A stretch of DNA of 55,103 nucleotides, from contig JAZDOD010000009.1 in the NCBI GenBank assembly GCA_043798995.1, positions 80,015-135,117 on the forward strand, read 5' to 3'. Below are positions 4,876-46,612 of this stretch, piece by piece. Source of the DNA: a bacterium (GTDB taxonomy: Bacteria; Patescibacteriota; Patescibacteriia; JAACEG01; JAGUWE01). The position numbers and the translations under genes are program-made. Position 1 is the first letter of the stretch, and every line of letters begins with the position of its first letter. The notes under the pieces were generated by a model that saw only the letters and a list, made by a program, of their open reading frames with translations, made no database searches and was not told the DNA's origin.

Positions 4876-4881
4876 AAATTC

Positions 4882-4959
4882 GTCATTCCTGCGAAAGCAG
4901 GAATCTATTTATAAATAAAATTTTATTATTTTTGGATTCCGCGTCAAGCACGGAATGAC
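4882..4959. repeat. GC-rich composite hairpin repeat, family A copy 1 (GTCATTCC...GGAATGAC)
   Basis: GTCATTCCTGC-GAAA-GCAGGAATC, then an AT spacer, then GGATTCCGCG-TCAAGCA-CGGAATGAC. The outer termini are inverted. The same architecture occurs at 40111, 44101 and 46517. Confidence 0.8.
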
Positions 4960-5605: not shown

Positions 5606-6376
5606 ATGGAAGTGATTATTACTAAAAATTATCAAAAAATGTCCGAGGTTGCTGCTTCGGTTGTGGCTAGGGCTATTGCCAAAAATAAAAAGATTGTTTT
5701 GGCCTTGCCGACCGGCAAAACACCGCGGGAATTGTACCGCTTTTTAATTAAAGCTTATCGGCGCGGCAGTATTAGTTTTAAAAAAGCAGTTGCTTTTAAT
5801 TTAGATGAATACATCGGTTTAAGTCCGGCGGATAAAGCCAGTTATCATTTTTATATGAAAGAATTTTTTTTTAAGTTTATTGATATAAAATCTAAAAATA
5901 TTTTTATTCCCGATGGCCAAGCCCGCCTGCCAAGGCCTGGAGCCAAGGCGACTGGCGGGCAGGCTAAAAATTTAGCCGCCGAATGCCGCCGTTACGAGAG
6001 AGAAATTAAAAAGCAAAATGGTCTTGATTTGGCAATTTTGGGTTTAGGCAAAAATGATCATCTTGGCTTTAACGAGCCGGGCTCAAGTTTTAATTCCAAA
6101 ACCAGAGTAGTTAAATTATCAGAAGCGACGAGAAAAACCAACGCTAAATTTTTTAAAGGCAGAAAAATTCCCAACTTTGCTATTACTATGGGACTTAAAA
6201 CAATTTTTTCCGCCAAAAAGATAATCCTTCTGGCTTCGGGCAGGGAAAAAGCTGAAGCGGTTAAAAAAGCTCTAAAAGCGCCGATTAGTCCTCAAATTCC
6301 AGCTTCAATTTTGCGTCAACACCCCAATGTGATTTTTATTCTTGACCGCGCCGCGGCTTTCAAAATAAAAAAATAA
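5606..6376 (+). CDS. nagB: Glucosamine-6-phosphate deaminase (carries a 14-codon repeat-derived insertion)
   Basis: LALPTGKTP, DEYIGL and GLGKNDHLGFNEPGS motifs. The extra segment ARLPRPGAKATGGQ is encoded by the GC-rich element at 5922-5963. Confidence 0.85.
   Translation: MEVIITKNYQKMSEVAASVVARAIAKNKKIVLALPTGKTPRELYRFLIKAYRRGSISFKKAVAFNLDEYIGLSPADKASYHFYMKEFFFKFIDIKSKNIFIPDGQARLPRPGAKATGGQAKNLAAECRRYEREIKKQNGLDLAILGLGKNDHLGFNEPGSSFNSKTRVVKLSEATRKTNAKFFKGRKIPNFAITMGLKTIFSAKKIILLASGREKAEAVKKALKAPISPQIPASILRQHPNVIFILDRAAAFKIKK
5922..5963 (+). repeat. Family B GC-rich element, 42-nt form, in frame inside nagB
   Basis: The sequence is cccgcctgccaaggcctggagccaaggcgactggcgggcagg. It is 42/42 identical to the reverse complement of 15086-15127 in topA, so both copies have the same orientation relative to the coding strand. 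Confidence 0.9.
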
Positions 6377-6400
6377 GACATTTTTAATTCGTTTTTTAGT

Positions 6401-6738
6401 ATGAATTTTAAAAAGCTTCTAAAGAAGCTTTTTAAAATTCATGATCTTAAATTTAATATTTTTGGTATCAACTACTGGTGTCGGTTACAGAACATTATTA
6501 GGACTATACTGGACAATTCTGAAGCTATTAAGAGCTGCTTTGAGCAAATGAATTTAATAAAGTCAGAAACGATCAATACTTAACAATCTATGACGGCAAT
6601 TTTAATGCTTCAAATAATAACTTTAGAATTGGTTACCTAGTAAGAGCATTTGATTGGCTCCGCACTGTGAACAATGTTAGAATTATTATTCAGCGGTCAA
6701 ATGAGTATATTTATGTTCCAAAACTGGAACTATTCTGA
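6401..6738 (+). pseudogene. Possible decayed gene: 60-codon ORF followed by a 58-codon Met-less open frame in another phase
   Basis: ORF 6401-6583 ends at TAA. A second frame (…YDGNFNASNNNFRIGYLVRAFDWLRTVNNVRIIIQRSNEYIYVPKLELF*) opens shortly before that stop, overlapping the first ORF's end, and runs to 6738. I recognised no family. Confidence 0.2.
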
Positions 6739-6756
6739 CTTATACTTAGAATATAA

Positions 6757-8121
6757 TTAATCCGGCAAACGCGGATTTAAAGAAATATCCCTATCACTAA
6801 ATAATTCTAATACAGTATTATCTTTTTGAAGGTCAATGGCTGTTAAAATTCTCGAAACTTTATTTGCGTCATTACTAGTATCATTAAAAACTATGTATCG
6901 TCCTCTTTGGGAAAAATAAACTTCTCCTTGTAAATAATGATTTCCCGTTACAGTGTATCTAAAATCAATTTGTCCATTGTCTAAATTTAAAGTGTAAATA
7001 TTATTATGACCACTTAAAACAAGAGTCTTTTCATCTTCCGACCAATTGTTTATCCGAGATAATCCATCAGCACTCAAAATAGATGAGATGTCAAAGTTTT
7101 TTTGTGGAGTAGAAAGATTGTCACTGCTATATAGCATCAAATCCCACTTCTTGTTTTCGTTTTTGTTAATAATTGCAAATTTAGATAATGATGGACTAAA
7201 AGATACATCTATAGGATCTTTCTTGTTATTTTTATCTTCAAAATCACCTATTTGTTTTATCTTGTCATTGTTAGCATCGTAAATATATATCGGCCAAAAT
7301 TTAAACCTCCATTCAGCTGGTACCGCAATTGAATAAAATCCAGCCAATATATTTTTATTAGAATCCCAGTTGGACCATATATATTTGTTGTCGCCAAAGG
7401 AGTAATATTCCTCATAATCATTATACCATTCGTCTTTTTTCCCGACCGCTTTATAAGCAGAATCAAGAATAGTGGTTGGAGAACAATTTTTTATTCTTGT
7501 ATCACATATGAATTCTTCTGCTTTCAAGATTGGAGGAGAATCTATATAATTATTTGGTTTTTTTGTCTCATCATAGGTAATAGAAACAATTATAGCTTTA
7601 TCATGGTCTTCTGATAAGAGATAGGTGCTATTTGATATGCTGATTTGATTATTTTTTGTTTCTTCTGGCAACCCAGTATATTCAGAAAGATCATAAAAAT
7701 TAGTTTCGATTTTTTTTAATTCCTTTGTATCTATATTCAGTATGTAATCATCGCCTTCAATATTGCACAAAATTGTATCTTGAATTTGTGGCATTACCAA
7801 TTTACCTTCACCAAGAGGATTATATCCGTTTAATATTTCGGCCCCATCCAAGTAGCCATCATTATCTGAATCAGAATTATTTGGGTTTGTTCCGTATTTT
7901 GTTTCGTCATTATCAGTAAGACCATCATTATCGGAATCTTTGACAACTGATTCACTTTTTGTATCGGTTGGTCGGGAGTTTTTCATCCAAAGCCAAGCAC
8001 CTCCTCCTATGGCTAGCAGAACGACTAATATGACAATCAAAATAATTCCCGTCTTGGACTTTTTCACAGGCTCATAATTTGTATCTTGATAGTCACTTGG
8101 GTCTATTTGTTGGTTAGGCAT
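6757..8121 (-). CDS. Membrane-anchored thrombospondin-type-3-repeat protein with a large C-terminal extracytoplasmic domain
   Basis: N-terminal TM helix (GIILIVILVVLLAIGGGAWLW), then DSDNDGLTDNDE...NPNNSDSDNDGYLDGAEILNGYNPLG. Confidence 0.6.
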   Translation of the reverse strand: MPNQQIDPSDYQDTNYEPVKKSKTGIILIVILVVLLAIGGGAWLWMKNSRPTDTKSESVVKDSDNDGLTDNDETKYGTNPNNSDSDNDGYLDGAEILNGYNPLGEGKLVMPQIQDTILCNIEGDDYILNIDTKELKKIETNFYDLSEYTGLPEETKNNQISISNSTYLLSEDHDKAIIVSITYDETKKPNNYIDSPPILKAEEFICDTRIKNCSPTTILDSAYKAVGKKDEWYNDYEEYYSFGDNKYIWSNWDSNKNILAGFYSIAVPAEWRFKFWPIYIYDANNDKIKQIGDFEDKNNKKDPIDVSFSPSLSKFAIINKNENKKWDLMLYSSDNLSTPQKNFDISSILSADGLSRINNWSEDEKTLVLSGHNNIYTLNLDNGQIDFRYTVTGNHYLQGEVYFSQRGRYIVFNDTSNDANKVSRILTAIDLQKDNTVLELFSDRDISLNPRLPD

Positions 8122-8171
8122 AAGGTTATTATTAAGATTTAGTTGTTTTAATTATAGCAAAAATTCAATTA

Positions 8172-8190
8172 TAAAAAACCCCTTGCGGGT
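8172..8190 (-). terminator. Intrinsic terminator candidate downstream of 8284-9291
   Basis: The - strand reads ACCC-GCAAG-GGGT followed by TTTTTT. The stem is short (4 bp). Confidence 0.35.
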
Positions 8191-8283
8191 ATTTTTTAGA
8201 TTCGCCGGGTCAAAAAAAATATCCTGGATAATATGAGCGTTTTTTAAAATAAAATTAGTTGAGGATTTCAAAGAGTTGAATTT

Positions 8284-9291
8284 TTATTTATCTTTTCTTG
8301 TGTCAATAATCGAGACATTGGAAAAAATTTCAGAGAGTTTATCCATTTGCTTTATTACCGAATCAGAGGTGGTATTTTTAATAATAAGTTCTACTTTATC
8401 GCCCTGAATTATTTTTTTGGTAAATTCTATATCTAATTTTAATGATAAACATCGTAGATCTTCGAGGGAACATTTAAAGCGCTCTTTAATTTTTTGTTCA
8501 ACTAAATTGCGTGACTCATAGTTTCCGAAATAAGCTTTAAAGACGGTGTCTTCATTAAGGGCTAATTCTTTCATAACCAAATGGGTGGCTGCTCGACACC
8601 AACCATAATAATCACCCTCCTCTTCTCTGCTGGGGATAACTGAATTATCGTTCACTGAAGTTTCTTCCCACATTACTGTTACTCCTTCATTAAACCATTT
8701 ATTTCCCACTGATATTATCCGTCCTTCTTTACTTTTTTCTAAACGAGTAAAACCAGTCGCTGATTCATGGGGCCTAGTGCTTAGCGTATGACCAACTTCG
8801 TGTGCCAGTAATTTATTAGGAGTATTAAGTTCTATATAAATAGCGTTAAGGTCTTGCGAATATGAATTAAGAGTGGGAGTAAATTTTGAAGGTTGTAAAC
8901 CATAGTGAAGAAAATTATCAGCGATGATTATCTTATAATCTCTGGCCTTGGTTAAATACTCCTTTTTTCTGGTGAGGGCGAAACAATCATCAGCTTGTTG
9001 TTTAAATAATAGCATTTTTTCAGCAGCGCTTCTCTGATAGTTTTCAATTATTTTTTGAGCATAAAGTTCTAACTCTTTGGCAAAAGGTTGACCGCCAGTT
9101 AAATTATATTTTTGGCGGTAGCGATTCTCAGAAATTGGATTTTCTCTAACTTTTTCTAAAATAATTTCAATAGCCTTTTGACTTAATTCTTCTAAACTTA
9201 AACCAGAAAAAGTTGAAATGTCTTGCATTTCAATATGTGGTTTGTACCCTTCTTTTATTTCCGGCATTTCAAATTGTTCATGATTTTTCAT
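8284..9291 (-). CDS. Hypothetical protein with HExxH zinc-metallopeptidase motif
   Basis: 335-aa ORF containing LLAHEVGHTL. I recognised no other motifs. Confidence 0.45.
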   Translation of the reverse strand: MKNHEQFEMPEIKEGYKPHIEMQDISTFSGLSLEELSQKAIEIILEKVRENPISENRYRQKYNLTGGQPFAKELELYAQKIIENYQRSAAEKMLLFKQQADDCFALTRKKEYLTKARDYKIIIADNFLHYGLQPSKFTPTLNSYSQDLNAIYIELNTPNKLLAHEVGHTLSTRPHESATGFTRLEKSKEGRIISVGNKWFNEGVTVMWEETSVNDNSVIPSREEEGDYYGWCRAATHLVMKELALNEDTVFKAYFGNYESRNLVEQKIKERFKCSLEDLRCLSLKLDIEFTKKIIQGDKVELIIKNTTSDSVIKQMDKLSEIFSNVSIIDTRKDK

Positions 9292-9304
9292 GTTTGTATT
9301 ATAT

Positions 9305-9326
9305 CAAAAAACCGCCTCTTAGGCGA
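9305..9326 (-). terminator. Intrinsic terminator after the tRNA-Leu/tRNA-Met pair
   Basis: The - strand reads CGCCT-AAG-AGGCG followed by GTTTTTTGA, 38 nt past the tRNA-Met 3' end. Confidence 0.5.
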
Positions 9327-9363
9327 TTTTTTTTGAAGTTATAATAAGATAGAACTAAAAATG

Positions 9364-9436
9364 TGTCAGGGGCGGGGATTGAACCCGCGACCTTAGGTTT
9401 ATGAGTCCTATGCTCTACCAACTGAGCTACCCTGAC
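9364..9436 (-). tRNA. tRNA-Met (anticodon CAT; elongator or Ile2-type not distinguishable)
   Basis: The reverse complement folds as GTCAGGG-TA-GCTC-AGTTGGTA-GAGC-A-TAGGA-CTCATAA-ACCTA-AGGTC-GCGGG-TTCAATC-CCCGC-CCCTGAC-A. There is one A.A mismatch at 31:39. CCA is not encoded. Confidence 0.9.
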
Positions 9437-9474
9437 AAAAAAGTGGGCGGGTGAGATTTGATATTTTATTTTTG

Positions 9475-9558
9475 TGCCGCGGGAGAGAATCGAACTCTCA
9501 TGCTCTTGCGAACATACGATTTTGAGTCGTACGCGTCTGCCAATTCCGCCACCGCGGC
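9475..9558 (-). tRNA. tRNA-Leu (anticodon CAA)
   Basis: The reverse complement is GCCGCGG...TACGA-CTCAAAA-TCGTA, a long variable arm TGTTC-GCAA-GAGCA, GAGAG-TTCGATT-CTCTC, then CCGCGGC-A. Confidence 0.9.
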
Positions 9559-9638
9559 ATTTTTCTTAATCTTAAATAAAATTGGCTAAATTGTCAAAAG
9601 ACGAGTAATAAGGTATAATATTAGTAGTCAATTTTTTT

Positions 9639-9770
9639 GACATTTGACATTTGCCTGCCCGCCAATTGCCAATGAGTCACTCGGTGATTTTAACAGATAT
9701 TTTAATAAAAAGCTTGATAAAATTTGGAAGCTTTCTTAATTGGCTTTGGCAGGCGGGAGCTTTGAGATTT
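9639..9770. repeat. Family B element, long intergenic form (reverse orientation relative to the nagB copy)
   Basis: GACATTTGACATTTG-CCTGCCCGCCAATTGCC, then ~74 nt of AT-rich filling, then AATTGGCTTTGGCAGGCGGG-AGCTTTG. Both ends match the ends of the 42-nt form (15/17 and 16/17 nt). Confidence 0.8.
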
Positions 9771-13144: not shown

Positions 13145-15436
13145 CTATTTTTCTTCTTGTGGTTTTTGCCAGGAAACATAATCGCATTTGGGATAGTTTG
13201 AACAGCCGTAGAAGAAACGGCCGCGTTTGCTGCGCCGGCGGACTACTATTCCCTCCTGGCATTTGGGGCATTTGATTTCCTCGCCCTTTTCATCAGTAAT
13301 TTTAAAATTATTATTTAAATGTTTAGTATTTTTGCAATCGGGATAACCAGAGCAGGCCAAAAATTTGCCAAAACGGCCCGTTTTAACAACCATTGGCTGG
13401 CCGCACTTTTCGCAAATAACATTGGTTTCTTCATTATTTTCATTTTGAGATTTTTTCTCGCCATTTTCACCGGCCCTGGCTAAATCTTGGGTATATTTGC
13501 AGCGCGGAAAATCAGAGCAGGCCAAAAATTTGCCAAAACGGCTCATTCTGGTAACTAAAGGCGAGCCGCATTTGGGACATTTTTCCTCAGTCACCTCACC
13601 CAGGATTTTTTCTTTGGAAAGCGTCTTTTCTTTTTGGGTTAAATTTTTCTTAAAGGGCTCATAGAAATCAGCAATCACCGGCTGCCAGGCAGTTTCTCCC
13701 TGGGCAATTTTATCAAAGTCATCTTCCATTTTAGCCGTAAACTGGTAGTCAACTATTTGAGAAAAATGTTCAGTTAAAAGATCGGTCACTAAGAAAGCAA
13801 CCTCGGTTGGTTTTAAACGGCCGGTTTCTTTTAGGATATAACCGCGATCCTGAATGGTGCTGATAATCGGCGCGTAAGTTGAAGGCCGGCCAATGCCGTA
13901 ACTTTCCAATTTTTTAATGAGTCCCGCTTCTGAATAGCGAGCCGGTGGCTGGGTGAAATGCTGATTATTTTTTATCTCAAGAAGAAGCAAGTCGTCGCCC
14001 GCTTTAACTTGGGGTAGAATCGTTTCACTGGTGGCAGTTTGATAAATTTTTAAAAAGCCCTTAAATTTGATTATCTGGCCATTAGCCAGAAAAATGTAAG
14101 GCGTCTTTTGGGCCTCAATTTCCAAAGCGGTCTGATCAAAAAAAGCATCGGTCATCTGGGAGGCGACTGTCTTTTGCCAGATTAATTGATAGAGTTTAGC
14201 TTGGTTTTTATCTAAATAATTTTTGATTTTTTCCGGCTCCCGGAAAACACTGGTTGGCCTGATTGCTTCATGGGCTTCTTGGGCTAGTTTGGCTTTGGTT
14301 TTATAATATTTTTTGCCCCTGAAGTAGCCGGATTCAAAATTATTTTTAAGGTAACTCGCAACCTCGTCTAAAAATTTTTCTGCCAGATTCAGCGAGTCGG
14401 TTCGCATATAAGTAATTAAACCAACAGAGCCCTCCTCTCCTAATTCAATGCCTTCATAAAGTTGCTGGGCTAACCTCATTGTTTGTTTGGCCGAGAAACC
14501 AAAACGGCGGTTGGCTTCCTGCTGCAGAGTGGAGGTGATAAAAGGCGGCGGGCTTTTGCGGATAACTTCTTTTTTTCTGACATTTAAAACTTGATACGAA
14601 GCATTTTTTAAGTTTTTTAAAATTTCCTGGGACTGAGTCTCATTTTTTATTTCTAACTTATCAATTTTCTGACCGTTGATTTTATCAAGATGCGCGGAAA
14701 AAGATTCTCCGCTGGCTTTTTGGGTTTTGCCATCAAGCGGATCAAAAATAGCGTCAATGGTCCAATATTCATCTTTTTTAAAGGCCTGGATTTCTTTTTC
14801 TCTTTCAACGATTAATTTGACCGCCACCGATTGGACGCGGCCGGCTGAAAGTTTTTTGGTGACTTTACGCCAAAGAAAAGGCGAGAGTTCATAGCCGACT
14901 AAGCGGTCTAAAATGCGCCGGGCTTGCTGGGAATCAACTAAATTCAAATTAAGATCGCGCGGTTCTTTTAAGGCATTGTCAATCGCTTCTTTGGTAATTT
15001 CATGAAAAACAATACGTTCTACCTTACTTTTGACTTTTGCCTGCCCCGTAGCTCCGCCAGTTGGCGGATGCTTCGGGGACTTTTGCCTGCCCGCCAGTCG
15101 CCTTGGCTCCAGGCCTTGGCAGGCGGGACTTTTGACCTCATTCAAGCCCAAGGCTTGGGTGAGGTGCCAGGCAATAGCTTCGCCTTCGCGATCTTCATCG
15201 GTGGCTAGAATTATTTTATCGGCTGATTTCAGTTGAGCCTTTAAATCTTTGACAACTTTTTTAGCTTTGCCGGGGATAATATAATGAGGCGCAAAATTGT
15301 TTTCAATCTCAATACCCATTTTGTTTTTAGGCAAATCTCGGACATGGCCGTAGGAAGAAGCGACCTGATAATTTTTATCCAAAAATTTGGCAATAGTTTT
15401 GGCTTTGGTTGGCGATTCAACGATAACGAGATTCAT
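13145..15436 (-). CDS. topA: DNA topoisomerase I with C-terminal zinc ribbons (carries a 34-codon repeat-derived insertion)
   Basis: TOPRIM start MNLVIVESPTKAKTI and DEDREGEAIAWH. Several CPKCG/CEKCG zinc ribbons. The extra segment SPACQGLEPRRLAGRQKSPKHPPTGGATGQAKVK lies between ...GLNEVK and SKVERIVFHEITK. Confidence 0.9.
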   Translation of the reverse strand: MNLVIVESPTKAKTIAKFLDKNYQVASSYGHVRDLPKNKMGIEIENNFAPHYIIPGKAKKVVKDLKAQLKSADKIILATDEDREGEAIAWHLTQALGLNEVKSPACQGLEPRRLAGRQKSPKHPPTGGATGQAKVKSKVERIVFHEITKEAIDNALKEPRDLNLNLVDSQQARRILDRLVGYELSPFLWRKVTKKLSAGRVQSVAVKLIVEREKEIQAFKKDEYWTIDAIFDPLDGKTQKASGESFSAHLDKINGQKIDKLEIKNETQSQEILKNLKNASYQVLNVRKKEVIRKSPPPFITSTLQQEANRRFGFSAKQTMRLAQQLYEGIELGEEGSVGLITYMRTDSLNLAEKFLDEVASYLKNNFESGYFRGKKYYKTKAKLAQEAHEAIRPTSVFREPEKIKNYLDKNQAKLYQLIWQKTVASQMTDAFFDQTALEIEAQKTPYIFLANGQIIKFKGFLKIYQTATSETILPQVKAGDDLLLLEIKNNQHFTQPPARYSEAGLIKKLESYGIGRPSTYAPIISTIQDRGYILKETGRLKPTEVAFLVTDLLTEHFSQIVDYQFTAKMEDDFDKIAQGETAWQPVIADFYEPFKKNLTQKEKTLSKEKILGEVTEEKCPKCGSPLVTRMSRFGKFLACSDFPRCKYTQDLARAGENGEKKSQNENNEETNVICEKCGQPMVVKTGRFGKFLACSGYPDCKNTKHLNNNFKITDEKGEEIKCPKCQEGIVVRRRSKRGRFFYGCSNYPKCDYVSWQKPQEEK
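15026..15134 (-). repeat. Composite GC-rich insertion in topA: [ACTTTTG]x2 - 39-nt hairpin - [ACTTTTG] - 42-nt family B element - [ACTTTTG]
   Basis: 15040-15078 is CCTGCC-CCGTAGC-TCCGCCA-GT-TGGCGGA-TGCTT-CGGGG. 15086-15127 is the exact reverse complement of 5922-5963. The net added length is 102 nt (34 codons). Confidence 0.9.
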
Positions 15437-15459
15437 AATTTAGAATTTAAAATTTAAAA

Positions 15460-16551
15460 TTAACGGGCAAGAACATAATTCATTCCCCCTAAATTTCTGA
15501 CCAAACCCTTAAGTTCCATCAGCGCGAGGGTGGAATTAATTTGAGCTGGGGGTAGTTTACTAAGCTGAATAATTTTGTCAATATGGAGAGGATTTTTACT
15601 GAGCAGTTCAATAATATTTTTTTCTTCCTCGTTTTCAGCAATGATTTTTTGATTTTCTAAAAAGGCGGTTGCCTGTTTAAGATTTAAACTTTCCAGAATA
15701 TCAGAGGCAGAGGTTGTGGGTTTGGCCCCCAGTTTAATTAAATTATTAGCGCCCTGGGAATTTCGGCTGTAAATATTGCCGGGTACGGCAAAAACGTCAC
15801 GATTTTGCTCCAGAGCAAAATTGGCCGTAATTAAGGTGCCGCTTTTTTCTGGCGCTTCAATAACCAGCACCCCCAAAGAAAGTCCGGAAATCAGACGATT
15901 GCGGGCCGGAAAATGCTGCTTAAGTGGCATGGTGCCCGGCGGATATTCAGAAAGAAGAAGACCCCCCTTTTCAATTATTTTTTTAGCTAAAAAGCGGTTG
16001 CTGCTTGGATAAATATTTTGCTTATCAAGACCTGAACCTAAAACAGCAATGGTTTTGCCGCCTGCTTCCAGGGCGGTCTGGTGAGCTAAGGCATCAATGC
16101 CTAAAGCTAAGCCACTGACAATTGTTAGGCCATTTTGGACCAAGTCCCAGGTCATTTCTCTTGCCACCTGCTGGCCGTAACTGGTTGGTTTTCTGGTGCC
16201 GACCACGGCCAGAGAAAATTCATTGGCAACTTTTAAATCACCGGAGAAAAAAAGAAGAGGTGGCGGTTGATAAATTTCCCGAAGCAGTTTGGGGTAATCC
16301 GGCTCTAAAATAGTTATAATTTCCAAACCTTCTTTTTTAAGTTCCTCCCATTCCCTATTAGGATTAATTTCTTTTCGTTTAATCAAAAGATTTTCCAGAG
16401 CTTCCTGATCCAAACCGGCTTCTCTCAGTGCTCCGGCTTCAGCCTGCCAGGCGGTTTTTAAATCGGGAAAAGCTCGCAGTAATTTTTTTAATTTTTGCGG
16501 CCCGATTTTATTGATTTTGGCAAAAGTAAGCCAATATTTTTTATCATCCAT
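15460..16551 (-). CDS. dprA: DNA-processing protein DprA (Smf)
   Basis: VVGTRKPTSYG and GLALGIDALAHQ motifs plus a C-terminal wHTH. ATG 16551 is preferred over GTG 16569, which lies inside an inverted repeat. Confidence 0.85.
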   Translation of the reverse strand: MDDKKYWLTFAKINKIGPQKLKKLLRAFPDLKTAWQAEAGALREAGLDQEALENLLIKRKEINPNREWEELKKEGLEIITILEPDYPKLLREIYQPPPLLFFSGDLKVANEFSLAVVGTRKPTSYGQQVAREMTWDLVQNGLTIVSGLALGIDALAHQTALEAGGKTIAVLGSGLDKQNIYPSSNRFLAKKIIEKGGLLLSEYPPGTMPLKQHFPARNRLISGLSLGVLVIEAPEKSGTLITANFALEQNRDVFAVPGNIYSRNSQGANNLIKLGAKPTTSASDILESLNLKQATAFLENQKIIAENEEEKNIIELLSKNPLHIDKIIQLSKLPPAQINSTLALMELKGLVRNLGGMNYVLAR

Positions 16552-20543: not shown

Positions 20544-20579
20544 CTTTGTGCCAAATTGGGCACATAGCTCAGCTGGTTA

Positions 20580-20623
20580 CCCGCCCGACTCGCTGCAGAC
20601 GCAGTTGCGTCGAAGCGGGCGGG
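20580..20623 (+). repeat. 44-nt hairpin block in the D loop (between positions 21 and 22) of the outer tRNA-Val
   Basis: CCCGCCCG-ACTCGC-TGC-AGAC-GCA-GTTGCGTCGAAG-CGGGCGGG, with an 8-bp perfect closing stem. Confidence 0.8.
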
Positions 20624-20639
20624 GAGCGCTACATTCACA

Positions 20640-20743
20640 CCCGCCTGCCTTGGCCGTTTAGCTCAGCTGGTTAGAGCGCTTCGTTCACATCGAAGAGGTC
20701 GAAGGTTCAAATCCTTCAACGGTCATAGTTTTAGGCGGGCAGG
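20640..20743 (+). repeat. 104-nt family B element in the anticodon loop of the outer tRNA-Val, carrying a complete tRNA
   Basis: CCCGCCTGCC-TT-[tRNA 20652-20725]-TAGTTTTA-GGCGGGCAGG. The termini pair over 10 positions with one C.A mismatch and one U.G wobble. Confidence 0.85.
20652..20725 (+). tRNA. tRNA-Val (anticodon CAC), nested
   Basis: GGCCGTT-TA-GCTC-AGCTGGTTA-GAGC-G-CTTCG-TTCACAT-CGAAG-AGGTC-GAAGG-TTCAAAT-CCTTC-AACGGTC-A. Confidence 0.95.
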
Positions 20744-20761
20744 TTGTAGAGGTCTCTGGTT

Positions 20762-20792
20762 TGACCCTGCGGGTCATCTCCCGTAGGGATGA
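20762..20792 (+). repeat. 31-nt double mini-hairpin block in the T loop (between positions 55 and 56) of the outer tRNA-Val
   Basis: TGACCC-TGC-GGGTCA followed by TCTCCC-GTA-GGGATGA. Removing it restores the T loop TTCAAGT. Confidence 0.7.
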
Positions 20793-20878
20793 CAAGTCCA
20801 GATGTGCCCATAAAGATGTTTGGCACTATTTAAGAATTTCATACTTAAAAGATAAAAATCAAATCAATCTTTAGCTGG

Positions 20879-45170: not shown

Positions 45171-45560
45171 ATGCCTGAGGTCAAAGCAAAAATTTTAATC
45201 ATTGAGGATGATAAGATGCTTTCGGATATGTATAGCTTAAAGTTTAATGAGGAAGGCTACCAAGCTATTCAGGCCTTTACCGGTTCGGAAGGAGTTGAAA
45301 AAACCAAAAGCGAGAAGCCGGACATTATTTTATTGGATATAATTTTGCCGCAAATGGACGGTTTTCAAGTGATGGAAGAAATTAAAAAAGATAAAAATTT
45401 AGTCAATATCCCGATTCTTTTTTTGACTAATCTAAGACAGGAAGAAGATGTGAAAAAGGGCACGGCCTTAGGCGCGGTTGGCTATTTGGTTAAAGCCAGC
45501 TATACCCCGGCCCAGGTTTTAGATAAAGTTAAAGAAATTTTAAAACAGTATAAAAAATAG
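45171..45560 (+). CDS. Single-domain response regulator (receiver only)
   Basis: ILIIEDD, the phospho-acceptor context IILLDIILPQMDG, and a conserved K (YLVKA). Confidence 0.8.
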   Translation: MPEVKAKILIIEDDKMLSDMYSLKFNEEGYQAIQAFTGSEGVEKTKSEKPDIILLDIILPQMDGFQVMEEIKKDKNLVNIPILFLTNLRQEEDVKKGTALGAVGYLVKASYTPAQVLDKVKEILKQYKK

Positions 45561-45596
45561 AATTAAAAATTTAGAATTAAGAATCAAGAATTTATG

Positions 45597-45695: not shown

Positions 45696-46286
45696 ATGAA
45701 TCATCCCAAAGAAGAAAAGACATTGCTTATCATTAAACCAGATGGCGTTAAGAGGGGACTGGTCGGTGAAATTTTAAAACGAATTGAGGATCGTGGTTTG
45801 AAAATCATTGCTCTTTCCATGATTTGGGCTACACCTTCGCAGATGGACAATCATTATCCTAAGGATGAGGTTTGGATCAAGCGAGTCGGTGAAAAAACTT
45901 TAAGCACTTACAATAAATACGGTTTAGATGCAATCAAAGAATTAGGCACCGACGATCCGTTGAAAATTGGCAAAATGGTAAGGCACTGGCTCATTGATTT
46001 TATGACTTCCGGACCTTTGGTCAAGGCCATCGTCCAAGGCATTCATGCCATTGATATGGTACGGAAAATTGCCGGCAATACCATGCCTGCGCTTTCGGAA
46101 ATGGGCACTATCCGCGGTGATTACTCGGTTGATTCAGCTGCGGCGGCTAATCGCGACAAACGCGCAGTCCATAATTTAGTTCACGCTTCAGAAACTCAAG
46201 CCGAGGCTGATAATGAAATCAATCTTTGGTTTAGCAAAAAAGACCTCCATAATTATAAAAGAGGAGATGAAGATATAATGTTTTAG
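45696..46286 (+). CDS. ndk: Nucleoside diphosphate kinase (long form)
   Basis: KTLLIIKPDGVKRGLVGEIL, with the catalytic His in NLVHASE. Confidence 0.8.
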   Translation: MNHPKEEKTLLIIKPDGVKRGLVGEILKRIEDRGLKIIALSMIWATPSQMDNHYPKDEVWIKRVGEKTLSTYNKYGLDAIKELGTDDPLKIGKMVRHWLIDFMTSGPLVKAIVQGIHAIDMVRKIAGNTMPALSEMGTIRGDYSVDSAAAANRDKRAVHNLVHASETQAEADNEINLWFSKKDLHNYKRGDEDIMF

Positions 46287-46452: not shown

Positions 46453-46477
46453 ATTGAACTTAAACAAAGTTTTAAAA

Positions 46478-46503
46478 AGCCGCCTGAAAAACAGGCGGCT
46501 TTA
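46478..46503. terminator. Strong intrinsic terminator
   Basis: AGCCGCCTG-AAAAA-CAGGCGGCT (9-bp perfect stem) flanked by an A-run and TTTAAAA. Confidence 0.75.
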
Positions 46504-46516
46504 AAAATGTATGTCT

Positions 46517-46612
46517 GTCATTCCTGCCCCGCATCTAGTGCGGGATAAACTCCAGTAGGAATCCAACATGCCAAATAGAATAACTCTGGATTCCCACTTT
46601 CGTGGGAATGAC
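46517..46612. repeat. Family A composite hairpin repeat, copy 3
   Basis: GTCATTCCTG...CAGTAGGAATCC, then a spacer, then GGATTCCCAC-TTTC-GTGGGAATGAC. Confidence 0.8.

Follow-up and report, generated by a model that had tools for sequence, protein, structure and literature searches.

How did two GC-rich hairpins come to lie inside topA, the essential gene for DNA topoisomerase I, in a bacterium of the Patescibacteriota, and what becomes of them there? The gene lies on a stretch of 55,103 nucleotides (assembly GCA_043798995.1, contig JAZDOD010000009.1, positions 80,015 to 135,117), and this whole stretch is referred to below as the window. The two hairpins, here termed unit A and unit B, sit among four copies of a 7-nt repeat. 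They are best explained as non-autonomous, GC-rich, hairpin-forming mobile DNA of the kind of repetitive extragenic palindromic sequences (REPs) and Rickettsia palindromic elements (RPEs). It is very probable that two such hairpins were inserted, without target duplication, into an ancestral microsatellite and are tolerated in a loop of the protein. The host gene and the parts of the insert are as follows.

13145-15436, minus strand: topA, the host gene, a type IA DNA topoisomerase I of 763 aa (open reading frame (ORF) with Toprim, Topoisom_bac and Zn_ribbon_Top1 Pfam domains; homologue names; PDB matches are TopA chains).
15026-15039, plus strand: heptads 1 and 2, ACTTTTG ACTTTTG (CAAAAGT on the coding strand), read as part of an ancestral four-unit coding microsatellite.
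15040-15078, plus strand: unit A, a hairpin of 39 nt and 72% GC, CCTGCCCCGTAGC-TCCGCC-AGTT-GGCGGA-TGCTTCGGGG, single copy in the window.
15079-15085, plus strand: heptad 3, ACTTTTG, between units A and B.
15086-15127, plus strand: unit B, a hairpin of 42 nt and 76% GC, CCTGCCCGCC...GGCAGGCGGG (covariance model and alignment to a relative).
15128-15134, plus strand: heptad 4, ACTTTTG.

On the plus strand, positions 15026-15134 run as two heptads, the 39-nt unit A, a heptad, the 42-nt unit B and a last heptad, with ACTTTTG starting at 15026, 15033, 15079 and 15128. This layout had been described exactly so in an earlier reading of the window from its letters only (the sequence-only reading). Within topA the block is translated as SPACQGLEPRRLAGRQKSPKHPPTGGATGQAKVKS, to which unit A, coding on the minus strand, contributes roughly PKHPPTGGATGQA and unit B PACQGLEPRRLAGR; all six frames of unit B are without a stop codon. 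The GC content of 1-kb steps across the window is 32-44%, against the 72% and 76% of the two units. ACTTTTG occurs 20 times on both strands of the window, with 13.7 expected, and four of these copies lie within 109 nt. Folded as single-stranded DNA, unit A reaches -15 kcal/mol (z = -5.0) and the whole 109-nt block -26.1 (z = -3.6).

Relatives without the hairpins revealed what the site looked like before. The nearest TopA orthologue (P0002; 85% identity over a 443-aa query) is 27 aa shorter, lacks the insert and reads ...LNKIKN-QKS-KIKNKVERIVF... at its position; in P0040, a second orthologue, the stretch is ...EVKSQKSKVKSIERIVF.... Units A and B are missing from TopA orthologues at 85% identity and below; the named homologues are all from Patescibacteria, at about 60% identity. 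In a MAFFT alignment of the window with a syntenic relative (locus L001; 5.5 kb, 80% nucleotide identity, equal gene order), the only two in-gene indels were 15086-15127 (42 nt) and 15040-15078 (39 nt), giving 81 nt or 27 codons of inserted DNA. On the coding strand the insertion points lie between heptads 1 and 2 and between heptads 2 and 3, at equal phase (AAAAGT^CAAAAGT). Locus L001 is hairpin-free and has four tandem CAAAAAT heptads; locus L003, also hairpin-free, has CAAAAGT CAAAAAT CAAAAGT CAAAAGT, encoding VKSQKSKVKS. Since these two relatives already carry four tandem heptads, the heptads are, judged from the DNA of the relatives, an ancestral 7-nt coding microsatellite encoding VKSQKSKVKS and not target-site duplications. 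The ancestral protein is accordingly reconstructed here as ...EVKSQKSKVKSKVERIVF..., not ...EVK-SKVERIVF....

The sequence-only reading had proposed two mobile-looking hairpins in an essential gene, inserted successively at one site. Both points held: the units are missing from orthologues, unit B recurs unchanged in another gene and frame, and both units stand at equal phase of successive heptads. An alignment to related topA genes found versions without both units, and a search for the inserted residues in distant orthologues did not find them conserved at protein level. Other parts of that reading had to be revised. It had given the insertion as 34 codons or 102 nt, where the alignment to L001 gives 81 nt. 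It had also held that removing 102 nt restores the usual spacing, which keeps the frame but yields a product that differs from the ancestral state. Finally, it had taken the heptad for a target-site duplication or a part of the element, and this fails on the four heptads that pre-exist in L001 and L003.

Separate from this insert, unrelated in-frame hairpins of 45-48 nt and 60-67% GC were observed in topA of other Patescibacteria, in a different loop near residue 410 (L005 11234-11278; L006 5376-5420; L007 2467-2514), and some TopA proteins are GARP-rich there. One end of the L006 insert, GGCAGGGCAGG, resembles the ends of units A and B.

Three further copies of unit B, or of elements with its ends, were found in the window.

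5922-5963, minus strand: second copy of unit B, a base-for-base match, in frame in a NagB-like gene (5606-6376, plus strand).
9654-9757, plus strand: 104-nt element, AT-rich inside and with 10-nt ends as in unit B, in the tRNA-Leu/parA spacer, missing from the syntenic locus L009.
20640-20743, minus strand: 104-nt element with unit B ends, the interior of which is an intact tRNA-Val(CAC) gene (20651-20726, plus strand) (ends and tRNA calls).

The identical copy on the opposite strand at 5922-5963 makes the 'family B' of the sequence-only reading a real one. The NagB-like gene is glucosamine-6-phosphate deaminase-like, and unit B is read in it as ARLPRPGAKATGGQ, in another frame than in TopA. 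NagB-like orthologues with 78-85% protein identity are 14 aa shorter, and loci L008 and L009 are without the 42 nt. The empty site in L008, GGCCAAG^CTAAAAAT, reveals a clean 42-nt insertion with no duplication. With its flanks, this copy folds at -18 (z = -3.5). The same site speaks against the heptads as duplications in topA, as does the reading frame: 7 nt added to 42 or 39 would each time give a frameshift.

The element at 20640-20743 splits the anticodon loop of another tRNA-Val(CAC) gene (20558-20812, plus strand) between its positions 37 and 38. This outer gene is interrupted by GC-rich hairpins at three places: the D loop has 44 nt (20580-20623), the anticodon loop the 104-nt element (20640-20743), and the T loop about 30 nt near 20764-20794. 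When the three were removed, the remaining sequence was called as tRNA-Val by ARAGORN; as it stands, the inner tRNA-Val(CAC) at 20651-20726 is the only one of the two called by ARAGORN and Rfam. The element at 9654-9757 is flanked by two copies of ACATTTG on the left and by AGCTTTG on the right. It was considered that the two 104-nt elements share a decayed tRNA interior, and this was rejected, as their interiors are no more alike than shuffled sequence.

In total, two short and two long B copies lie within 55 kb, and three of the five units are in protein-coding sequence. Three of the window copies point one way and two the other, while the cumulative GC skew rises across the window. A covariance model scored both short unit B copies at 55.1 bits (E ~2e-9) on the strand that begins with CCTG and at 18.4 on the other strand; it found no further short B copies in the window. 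In an Rfam 15 scan only tRNAs reached the gathering score in the window, and with E up to 10 nothing relevant appeared at 14950-15200.

Outside the window, the exact 23-nt core of unit B had no match in 185,579 representative genomes. In metagenomes it was found in one contig (L004), where a tRNA-Val gene has unit B in its anticodon loop and hairpins in its D loop as well. Because the exact core gave nearly nothing, the family was revealed only by a relaxed pattern of the ends, CCTGCCCGCC N5-35 GGCNNNGGCAGGCGGG, which was searched in contigs at one genome per species and gave at least 120 matches. This pattern forces the ends and the matches listed are part of the whole, so the search is no measure of family size or end conservation; the family counts below are those among the matches listed. 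About 10 are plausible chance matches in high-GC genomes, and 110 lie in loci of 31-58% GC. The labels of the metagenome-assembled genomes (MAGs) include Saccharibacteria, Nomura-, Jackson-, Buchanan-, Lipton-, Yanofsky- and Curtissbacteria and Parcubacteria, and further Desulfobacterales, uncultured Gammaproteobacteria, Chloroflexota, Actinomycetota, Bacteroidota and one archaeon; these phylum labels are those of the MAG records and may include binning errors. Notable carriers are Patescibacteria, with many matches, and Desulfobacterales. Unit B and a copy in a Yanofskybacteria MAG (L054) are alike but for one base.

An alignment of 59 distinct members of 38-45 nt has invariant CCTGCCCGCCA and (Y)AGGC(G)NYGGCAGGCGGG, but these ends were fixed by the search pattern and are uninformative on structure. 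The apical mini-stem, on the other hand, covaries on both sides (GCC/GGC, GGC/GCC, GTC/GAC, AGC/GCT, TAGC/GCTA, GGCC/GGCC). CCTGCC can pair with GGCGGG through a T.G wobble, by which the whole unit becomes one hairpin, and this possible pairing with the far end weakens the idea that CCTG is an unpaired REP-like tag. Among the matches listed, members are 32-61 nt long, and 64 of 87 distinct members (loci L015-L134) have a length divisible by three (33, 39, 42, 54 and 57 nt).

B-type hairpins were also present in viral sequence. In IMG/VR contigs of about 53% GC, hairpins of 33 and 36 nt occur several times each among short repeats of the CTCTGTG type, and one such contig has matches to phage structural proteins. 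The first 16 nt of unit A equal those of hairpins beside B-type hairpins in phage-like contigs (L010, L011, L014, L137, L140-142). The exact unit A head had 12 matches in viral contigs, about half of them chance-like, and is credible only where it stands beside B-type hairpins and CTCTGTG repeats. In L012 (327-395) a 33-nt B-type hairpin lies exactly in the loop of another, CCTGCCCGCAATGCTTCGCAA[33 nt]CGCGAGGCAGGCGGG, without duplication. As a side observation, the intergenic regions of L010, L011 and L014 (IMG/VR 3300022846_000081, 3300024048_000009) are dense with A- and B-type hairpins embedded in CTCTGTG/CACAGAG repeats, which themselves form larger inverted repeats.

The places where family copies land share several traits. 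Among the matches listed, the base before CCTG is a purine at 93 of 108 sites, as it is for all five copies in the window and L004. A direct repeat of at least 6 nt is common to both 20-nt flanks at 25% of sites, against 5.7% of randomly paired flanks, and an inverted repeat of at least 6 nt at 15.7% against 5.6%. The flanking repeats vary from 5 to 12 nt and are often part of longer tandem arrays. Copies lie between short tandem repeat units (L112, L118, L132, L097), in loops of other hairpins (L043, L078, L119, L065) and in loops of tRNA genes (L069 1538-1575; L126 about 746; L095 6337-6378). The flanks in a Saccharibacteria MAG, atagctcaggtggtta on one side and gagcacc on the other, are those of a D loop, and two other loci are T-loop-like. 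The topA heptads thus exemplify a tendency, seen across the family, to land in loops and short repeat tracts. Taken together, a small hairpin with conserved ends has spread in a copy-and-paste manner, without duplication at clean sites; the family model is strand-asymmetric, and a purine at -1, loops and repeat tracts are preferred. Apart from this, AT-rich spacers made of short imperfect tandem units (TAGAATT / AAGAATC / GGATAAAAGAT) were noted in the window (15431-15461, 45548-45592) and in L097 and L118; such stretches recur in spacers of Patescibacteria and are frequent landing places of hairpins.

These flanking repeats bear on a different history of the site, in which the heptads would be target-site duplications or excision footprints, a single heptad would be ancestral and the four-heptad relatives would have lost their elements by precise excision. 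The simple duplication model is rejected for the heptads on orthologue DNA, frame arithmetic and the empty site of the NagB-like gene, and we regard the wider form as unlikely. It would account for the identical heptads that flank each unit, for the frame kept by three footprints (21 nt) plus 39 plus 42, which make 102 nt, for the similar heptads ACATTTG and AGCTTTG on both sides of the independent locus at 9654-9757, and for direct repeats of at least 6 nt that flank family copies at over four times the rate of randomly paired flanks (25% vs 5.7%). However, the same element entered the NagB-like gene without duplication, and each single step (+49 or +46 nt) would have broken the frame of this essential gene. 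Several clean excisions would have been needed in each of L001/L002 and L003, and variable repeats of 5-12 nt, often in longer arrays, are more readily explained by a preference for repeat tracts than by a duplication of fixed length.

About a third of the copies are inside genes. Among the matches listed, 37 of 110 lie in read-through ORFs (at least 40 codons on each side), in both orientations (19 vs 18), and 32 of these 37 have a length divisible by three, compared with 46 of the 73 remaining copies, in which the bias towards multiples of three is present too. Nine host genes, of the housekeeping kind, were checked by Pfam: RNase J, MurC, MurD, ArgRS, CysRS, UvrB, UvrC, LigA and a UvrD/AddA-like helicase. 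Many host ORFs contain the recurring peptide ARLPxP...GGQ. The topA insertion is a typical outcome of in-frame selfish hairpins; topA stays open because the units are 42 and 39 nt long and contain no stop codon in the frame used.

The insert is likely to be translated. A rival view, to which we give little credence, holds that the hairpins are never translated, being either removed from the RNA in the manner of an intron or intervening sequence, or hopped by the ribosome as in T4 gene 60 and byp elements, with the heptads as take-off and landing sites. The codons on either side of the block are indeed identical (AAA-AGU), and the frame would be kept if the ribosome jumped 102 nt, from the first heptad to the last. 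Some family members interrupt tRNA genes, in the D, anticodon and T loops, and there an insert left unprocessed should do harm, and the strand-specific family model with its T.G wobble hints at a single-stranded or RNA-level structure. Yet the insert is in frame and stop-free, no stop follows the putative take-off codon, and hops over single units (49 or 46 nt) break the frame. The divisibility by three of 32 of the 37 in-ORF copies among the matches listed is expected only under read-through, the occurrence of both orientations in genes (19 vs 18) means that one strand-specific RNA signal cannot serve all, and the split tRNA-Val of the window is backed up by an intact copy.

HMMER alignments to solved TopA chains split the query into 2-99 and 136/140-219, and solved TopA structures have 2-5 residues where the window TopA has about 40. 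An AlphaFold2 model built with 60 homologues (mean predicted local distance difference test score, pLDDT, 80.8) gave residues 101-136 a pLDDT below 50 and no secondary structure, between a confident helix (83-95), which follows the DxDxEGE motif, and a strand (139-144, RIVFHE). On this model, the insert is most plausibly a disordered loop at the surface, with the TOPRIM fold undisturbed.

The variable linker also invites a reading as an ordinary, lineage-specific expansion of a TopA loop, by protein selection or by duplication and slippage, with no mobile element involved. Linker length does vary in Patescibacteria, where two TopA proteins (P0003, P0004) have K/S/N-rich expansions at the equivalent position, and other TopA proteins have GARP-rich inserts near residue 410. 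We consider this reading highly improbable, and it was rejected: the insert is missing from an orthologue with 85% identity, the indels are exactly 42 and 39 nt, the units have 72-76% GC against 32-44% in window steps, unit B recurs base for base in the unrelated NagB-like gene in another frame, more than 100 related copies stand in unrelated contexts, and the residue-410 inserts are themselves GC-rich hairpins. An assembly or chimera artefact is equally improbable, for although the contig is metagenomic and GC-rich palindromes can cause assembly errors, the reading frame is kept at all three coding insertions, the insertion boundaries against relatives are base-exact, and many projects and assemblers have yielded the family in independent assemblies (JGI, NCBI MAG and IMG/VR records).

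Accordingly, we propose the following sequence of events. Units A and B would each have entered separately, without target duplication, at one phase of a pre-existing CAAAAGT microsatellite that presumably encodes a short surface linker of the TOPRIM domain. The units may travel as single-stranded DNA hairpins, which a trans-acting HUH/Y1 transposase, REP-associated tyrosine transposase (RAYT)-like and of IS200 type, would cut and join; candidate targets for joining are the single-stranded loops that slipped tandem repeats, cruciforms and replication forks would expose. The insert would then be translated instead of removed, its 27 extra residues most likely forming a disordered, solvent-exposed loop, as modelled, and it would persist as tolerated passenger DNA with no adaptation. 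The full explanation, of separately inserted REP/RPE-like selfish hairpins, without target duplication and translated through, is the one that we favour, with reasonable confidence.

The enzyme is the more tentative part. Clustering of ORFs over the family loci gave a single transposase cluster, of Y1_Tnp proteins, in 4 of about 110 loci of <=8 kb, given here as a raw count. In one locus (L057 469-560) a 41-nt copy splits codon 9 of the Y1 gene and shifts its frame; in another (L130 2-1045), where the Y1 gene is fused to a DnaA-C helix-turn-helix domain, a 33-nt copy near the 3' end is in frame. Such hits would fit local hopping by an enzyme that acts near its own gene. Movement of the units by a RAYT-like Y1 enzyme is therefore put forward as a possibility at somewhat under even odds.

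Several observations weigh against parts of this explanation. The best NCBIfam match of the Y1 proteins, the REP-associated tyrosine transposase NF047646, reaches 63.8 and 49.3 bits against a cut-off of 80. B elements interrupt Y1 genes and do not flank them as in REPtrons, and in the family loci no REPtron arrangement (a RAYT gene flanked by repeats) was seen; the link to Y1 genes could be merely indiscriminate insertion. About 40 window ORFs were scanned and no transposase was found. The window copies lack an orientation bias (3 vs 2) of the kind that a lagging-strand preference would give, and instead of a tetra- or pentanucleotide target like that of IS200/IS605 elements, only the purine at -1 was found. 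Unit B alone folds at -10.9 (z = -1.1), no better than shuffled sequence. The locus at 9654-9757 has about 6 extra bases compared with L009, where an imperfect 7-nt duplication (ACATTTG/AGCTTTG) is possible, and the 8-12-nt direct repeats that flank some members could be variable-length duplications and not pre-existing repeats. Finally, the idea that the family evolved to avoid stop codons was dropped, since 24% of members are open in all six frames, as are 23% of shuffled controls.

A wider reading of the family as a whole is offered as a speculative one, at well under even odds. Unit B would belong to a hairpin mobile element that has not been described before and is present in MAGs labelled as many phyla, with the ends CCTGCCCGCCA ... 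AGGCGnyGGCAGGCGGG conserved across lineages. It would insert without duplication into single-stranded loops (D, anticodon and T loops of tRNAs, terminators, other copies and slipped tandem repeats), and size classes that are mostly multiples of three would let it survive inside essential genes. It would carry cargo, here a whole tRNA-Val that replaces the tRNA-Val gene split by it, would travel on phage-like contigs and would be moved by a distinct RAYT-like Y1 clade, some members of which are fused to a DnaA-type helix-turn-helix domain.

Other features of the window were noted in passing. The neighbours of topA are relA/spoT, dprA, pth and der. A different repeat, resembling a MITE (miniature inverted-repeat transposable element), has the ends GTCATTCC...GGAATGAC and small internal hairpins and occurs twice. 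One copy, at 4878-4959, has a glycosyltransferase gene on one side and a PIG-L-like gene on the other and is missing from the syntenic loci L008 and L009; the second, at 46516-46611, is downstream of ndk and beside a terminator-like hairpin (46476-46502). An insert in NDK (45696-46286) was examined as another hairpin and rejected, being AT-rich and not a hairpin. The interval from the NagB-like gene to parA holds in L009 (10885-11463) a free-standing ORF of LAGLIDADG type next to a tRNA-like stretch; the counterpart in the window (6400-9560) has two other ORFs, one with TSP3 repeats, together with tRNA-Met and tRNA-Leu, and is a local rearrangement hotspot.

These findings mean that conserved essential proteins of streamlined, ultra-small bacteria are probably lengthened by selfish DNA and not by adaptive change. 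TopA is the case here, with UvrB, UvrC, LigA, MurC, MurD, aminoacyl-tRNA synthetases and RNase J in related genomes. Annotators and structure predictors should expect functionless, GARP-rich disordered loops, for example ARLPxP...GGQ or LAGRQ, and the split and replaced tRNA-Val illustrates that tRNA gene finders can miss genes broken by hairpins. The MAG labels from many phyla, together with the phage-like contigs, point to horizontal spread or flag binning problems. The B family is a well-defined, tiny mobile unit (33-57 nt) with many pairs of filled and empty sites, a habit of landing in loops and repeats, and candidate Y1 transposases; with these assets, in vitro work can directly test how REP-like hairpins move, a long-open question.

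Among known systems, RPEs are the closest in their effect on genes. They are about 100-150 bp long, known only from Rickettsia and found in RNA genes as well. They occur in frame within ORFs that probably encode functional proteins (as summarised in PMC3733652). The likeness lies in short palindromic selfish repeats that are in frame in housekeeping genes, translated (presumably so in topA), and tolerated at surface positions; here, too, the host ORFs are intact, since the topA and NagB-like genes stay open and 32 of the 37 in-ORF copies among the matches listed are divisible by three. The units described here differ in being 39 and 42 nt long (family 32-61), with the ends CCTGCCCGCC/GGCAGGCGGG, in occurring in many phyla and in nesting in loops of hairpins and tRNAs, and are set apart by size and hosts. 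REPs are imperfect GC-rich palindromes of 20-40 nt that form several families in one genome, some of them inside genes, many of which are replication and repair genes (Di Nocera et al. 2013, PMC3733652), and their mobilisation by HUH/Y1 tyrosine transposases acting on single-stranded hairpins has been proposed (PMC3733652). The B family resembles them as short, imperfect GC-rich palindromes in many copies (more than 100 B copies in public MAGs), with Y1 genes near some copies. However, unit B is without the GTAG/CGTC end tag and unit A has GTAG only internally (15048-15051), and REPs are mainly extragenic, whereas 37 of 110 B copies among the matches listed are in read-through ORFs.

With IS200/IS605 elements and their derivatives that lack a transposase, the palindrome-associated transposable elements (PATEs), the family shares the lack of target duplication (L008; topA against L001 and L003; L012), dependence on DNA hairpins and the Pfam Y1_Tnp superfamily. 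IS200/IS605 elements have separate hairpins, subterminal on the left and on the right, and insert 3' of a defined tetra- or pentanucleotide. In the B family the ends pair with each other, only the purine at -1 is conserved and the window copies have no orientation bias. The mobile GC clusters and byp elements of yeast mitochondria are, like the units here, short GC-rich hairpins that spread in an AT-rich genome, in protein and RNA genes. In both byp elements and T4 gene 60 the ribosome passes over a gap that opens with a stop codon, and the codons of take-off and landing match. The topA insert has matching codons but is open, in frame and stop-free, and hops over single units break the frame. 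DDE-type MITEs make target-site duplications of fixed length. They are similar to the B elements as small, non-coding, multi-copy elements with complementary ends and with short and long forms that have equal ends (42 and 104 nt here); they differ in that the NagB-like and nested L012 insertions have no duplication and the flank repeats of the family range over 5-12 nt.

It follows that the B element is not a DDE-type MITE, as it makes no fixed duplication, and that the topA insert is not a bypass element, as it is open and in frame. The B family stands outside RPEs by its size and hosts, and outside REPs by the missing GTAG/CGTC tag and by their extragenic habit. Full-text literature searches and Rfam gave no prior description of it. 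The family behind the topA insertion thus appears to be an undescribed one, very small, spread over many lineages, nesting in loops and carrying a tRNA, with lengths biased to multiples of three.

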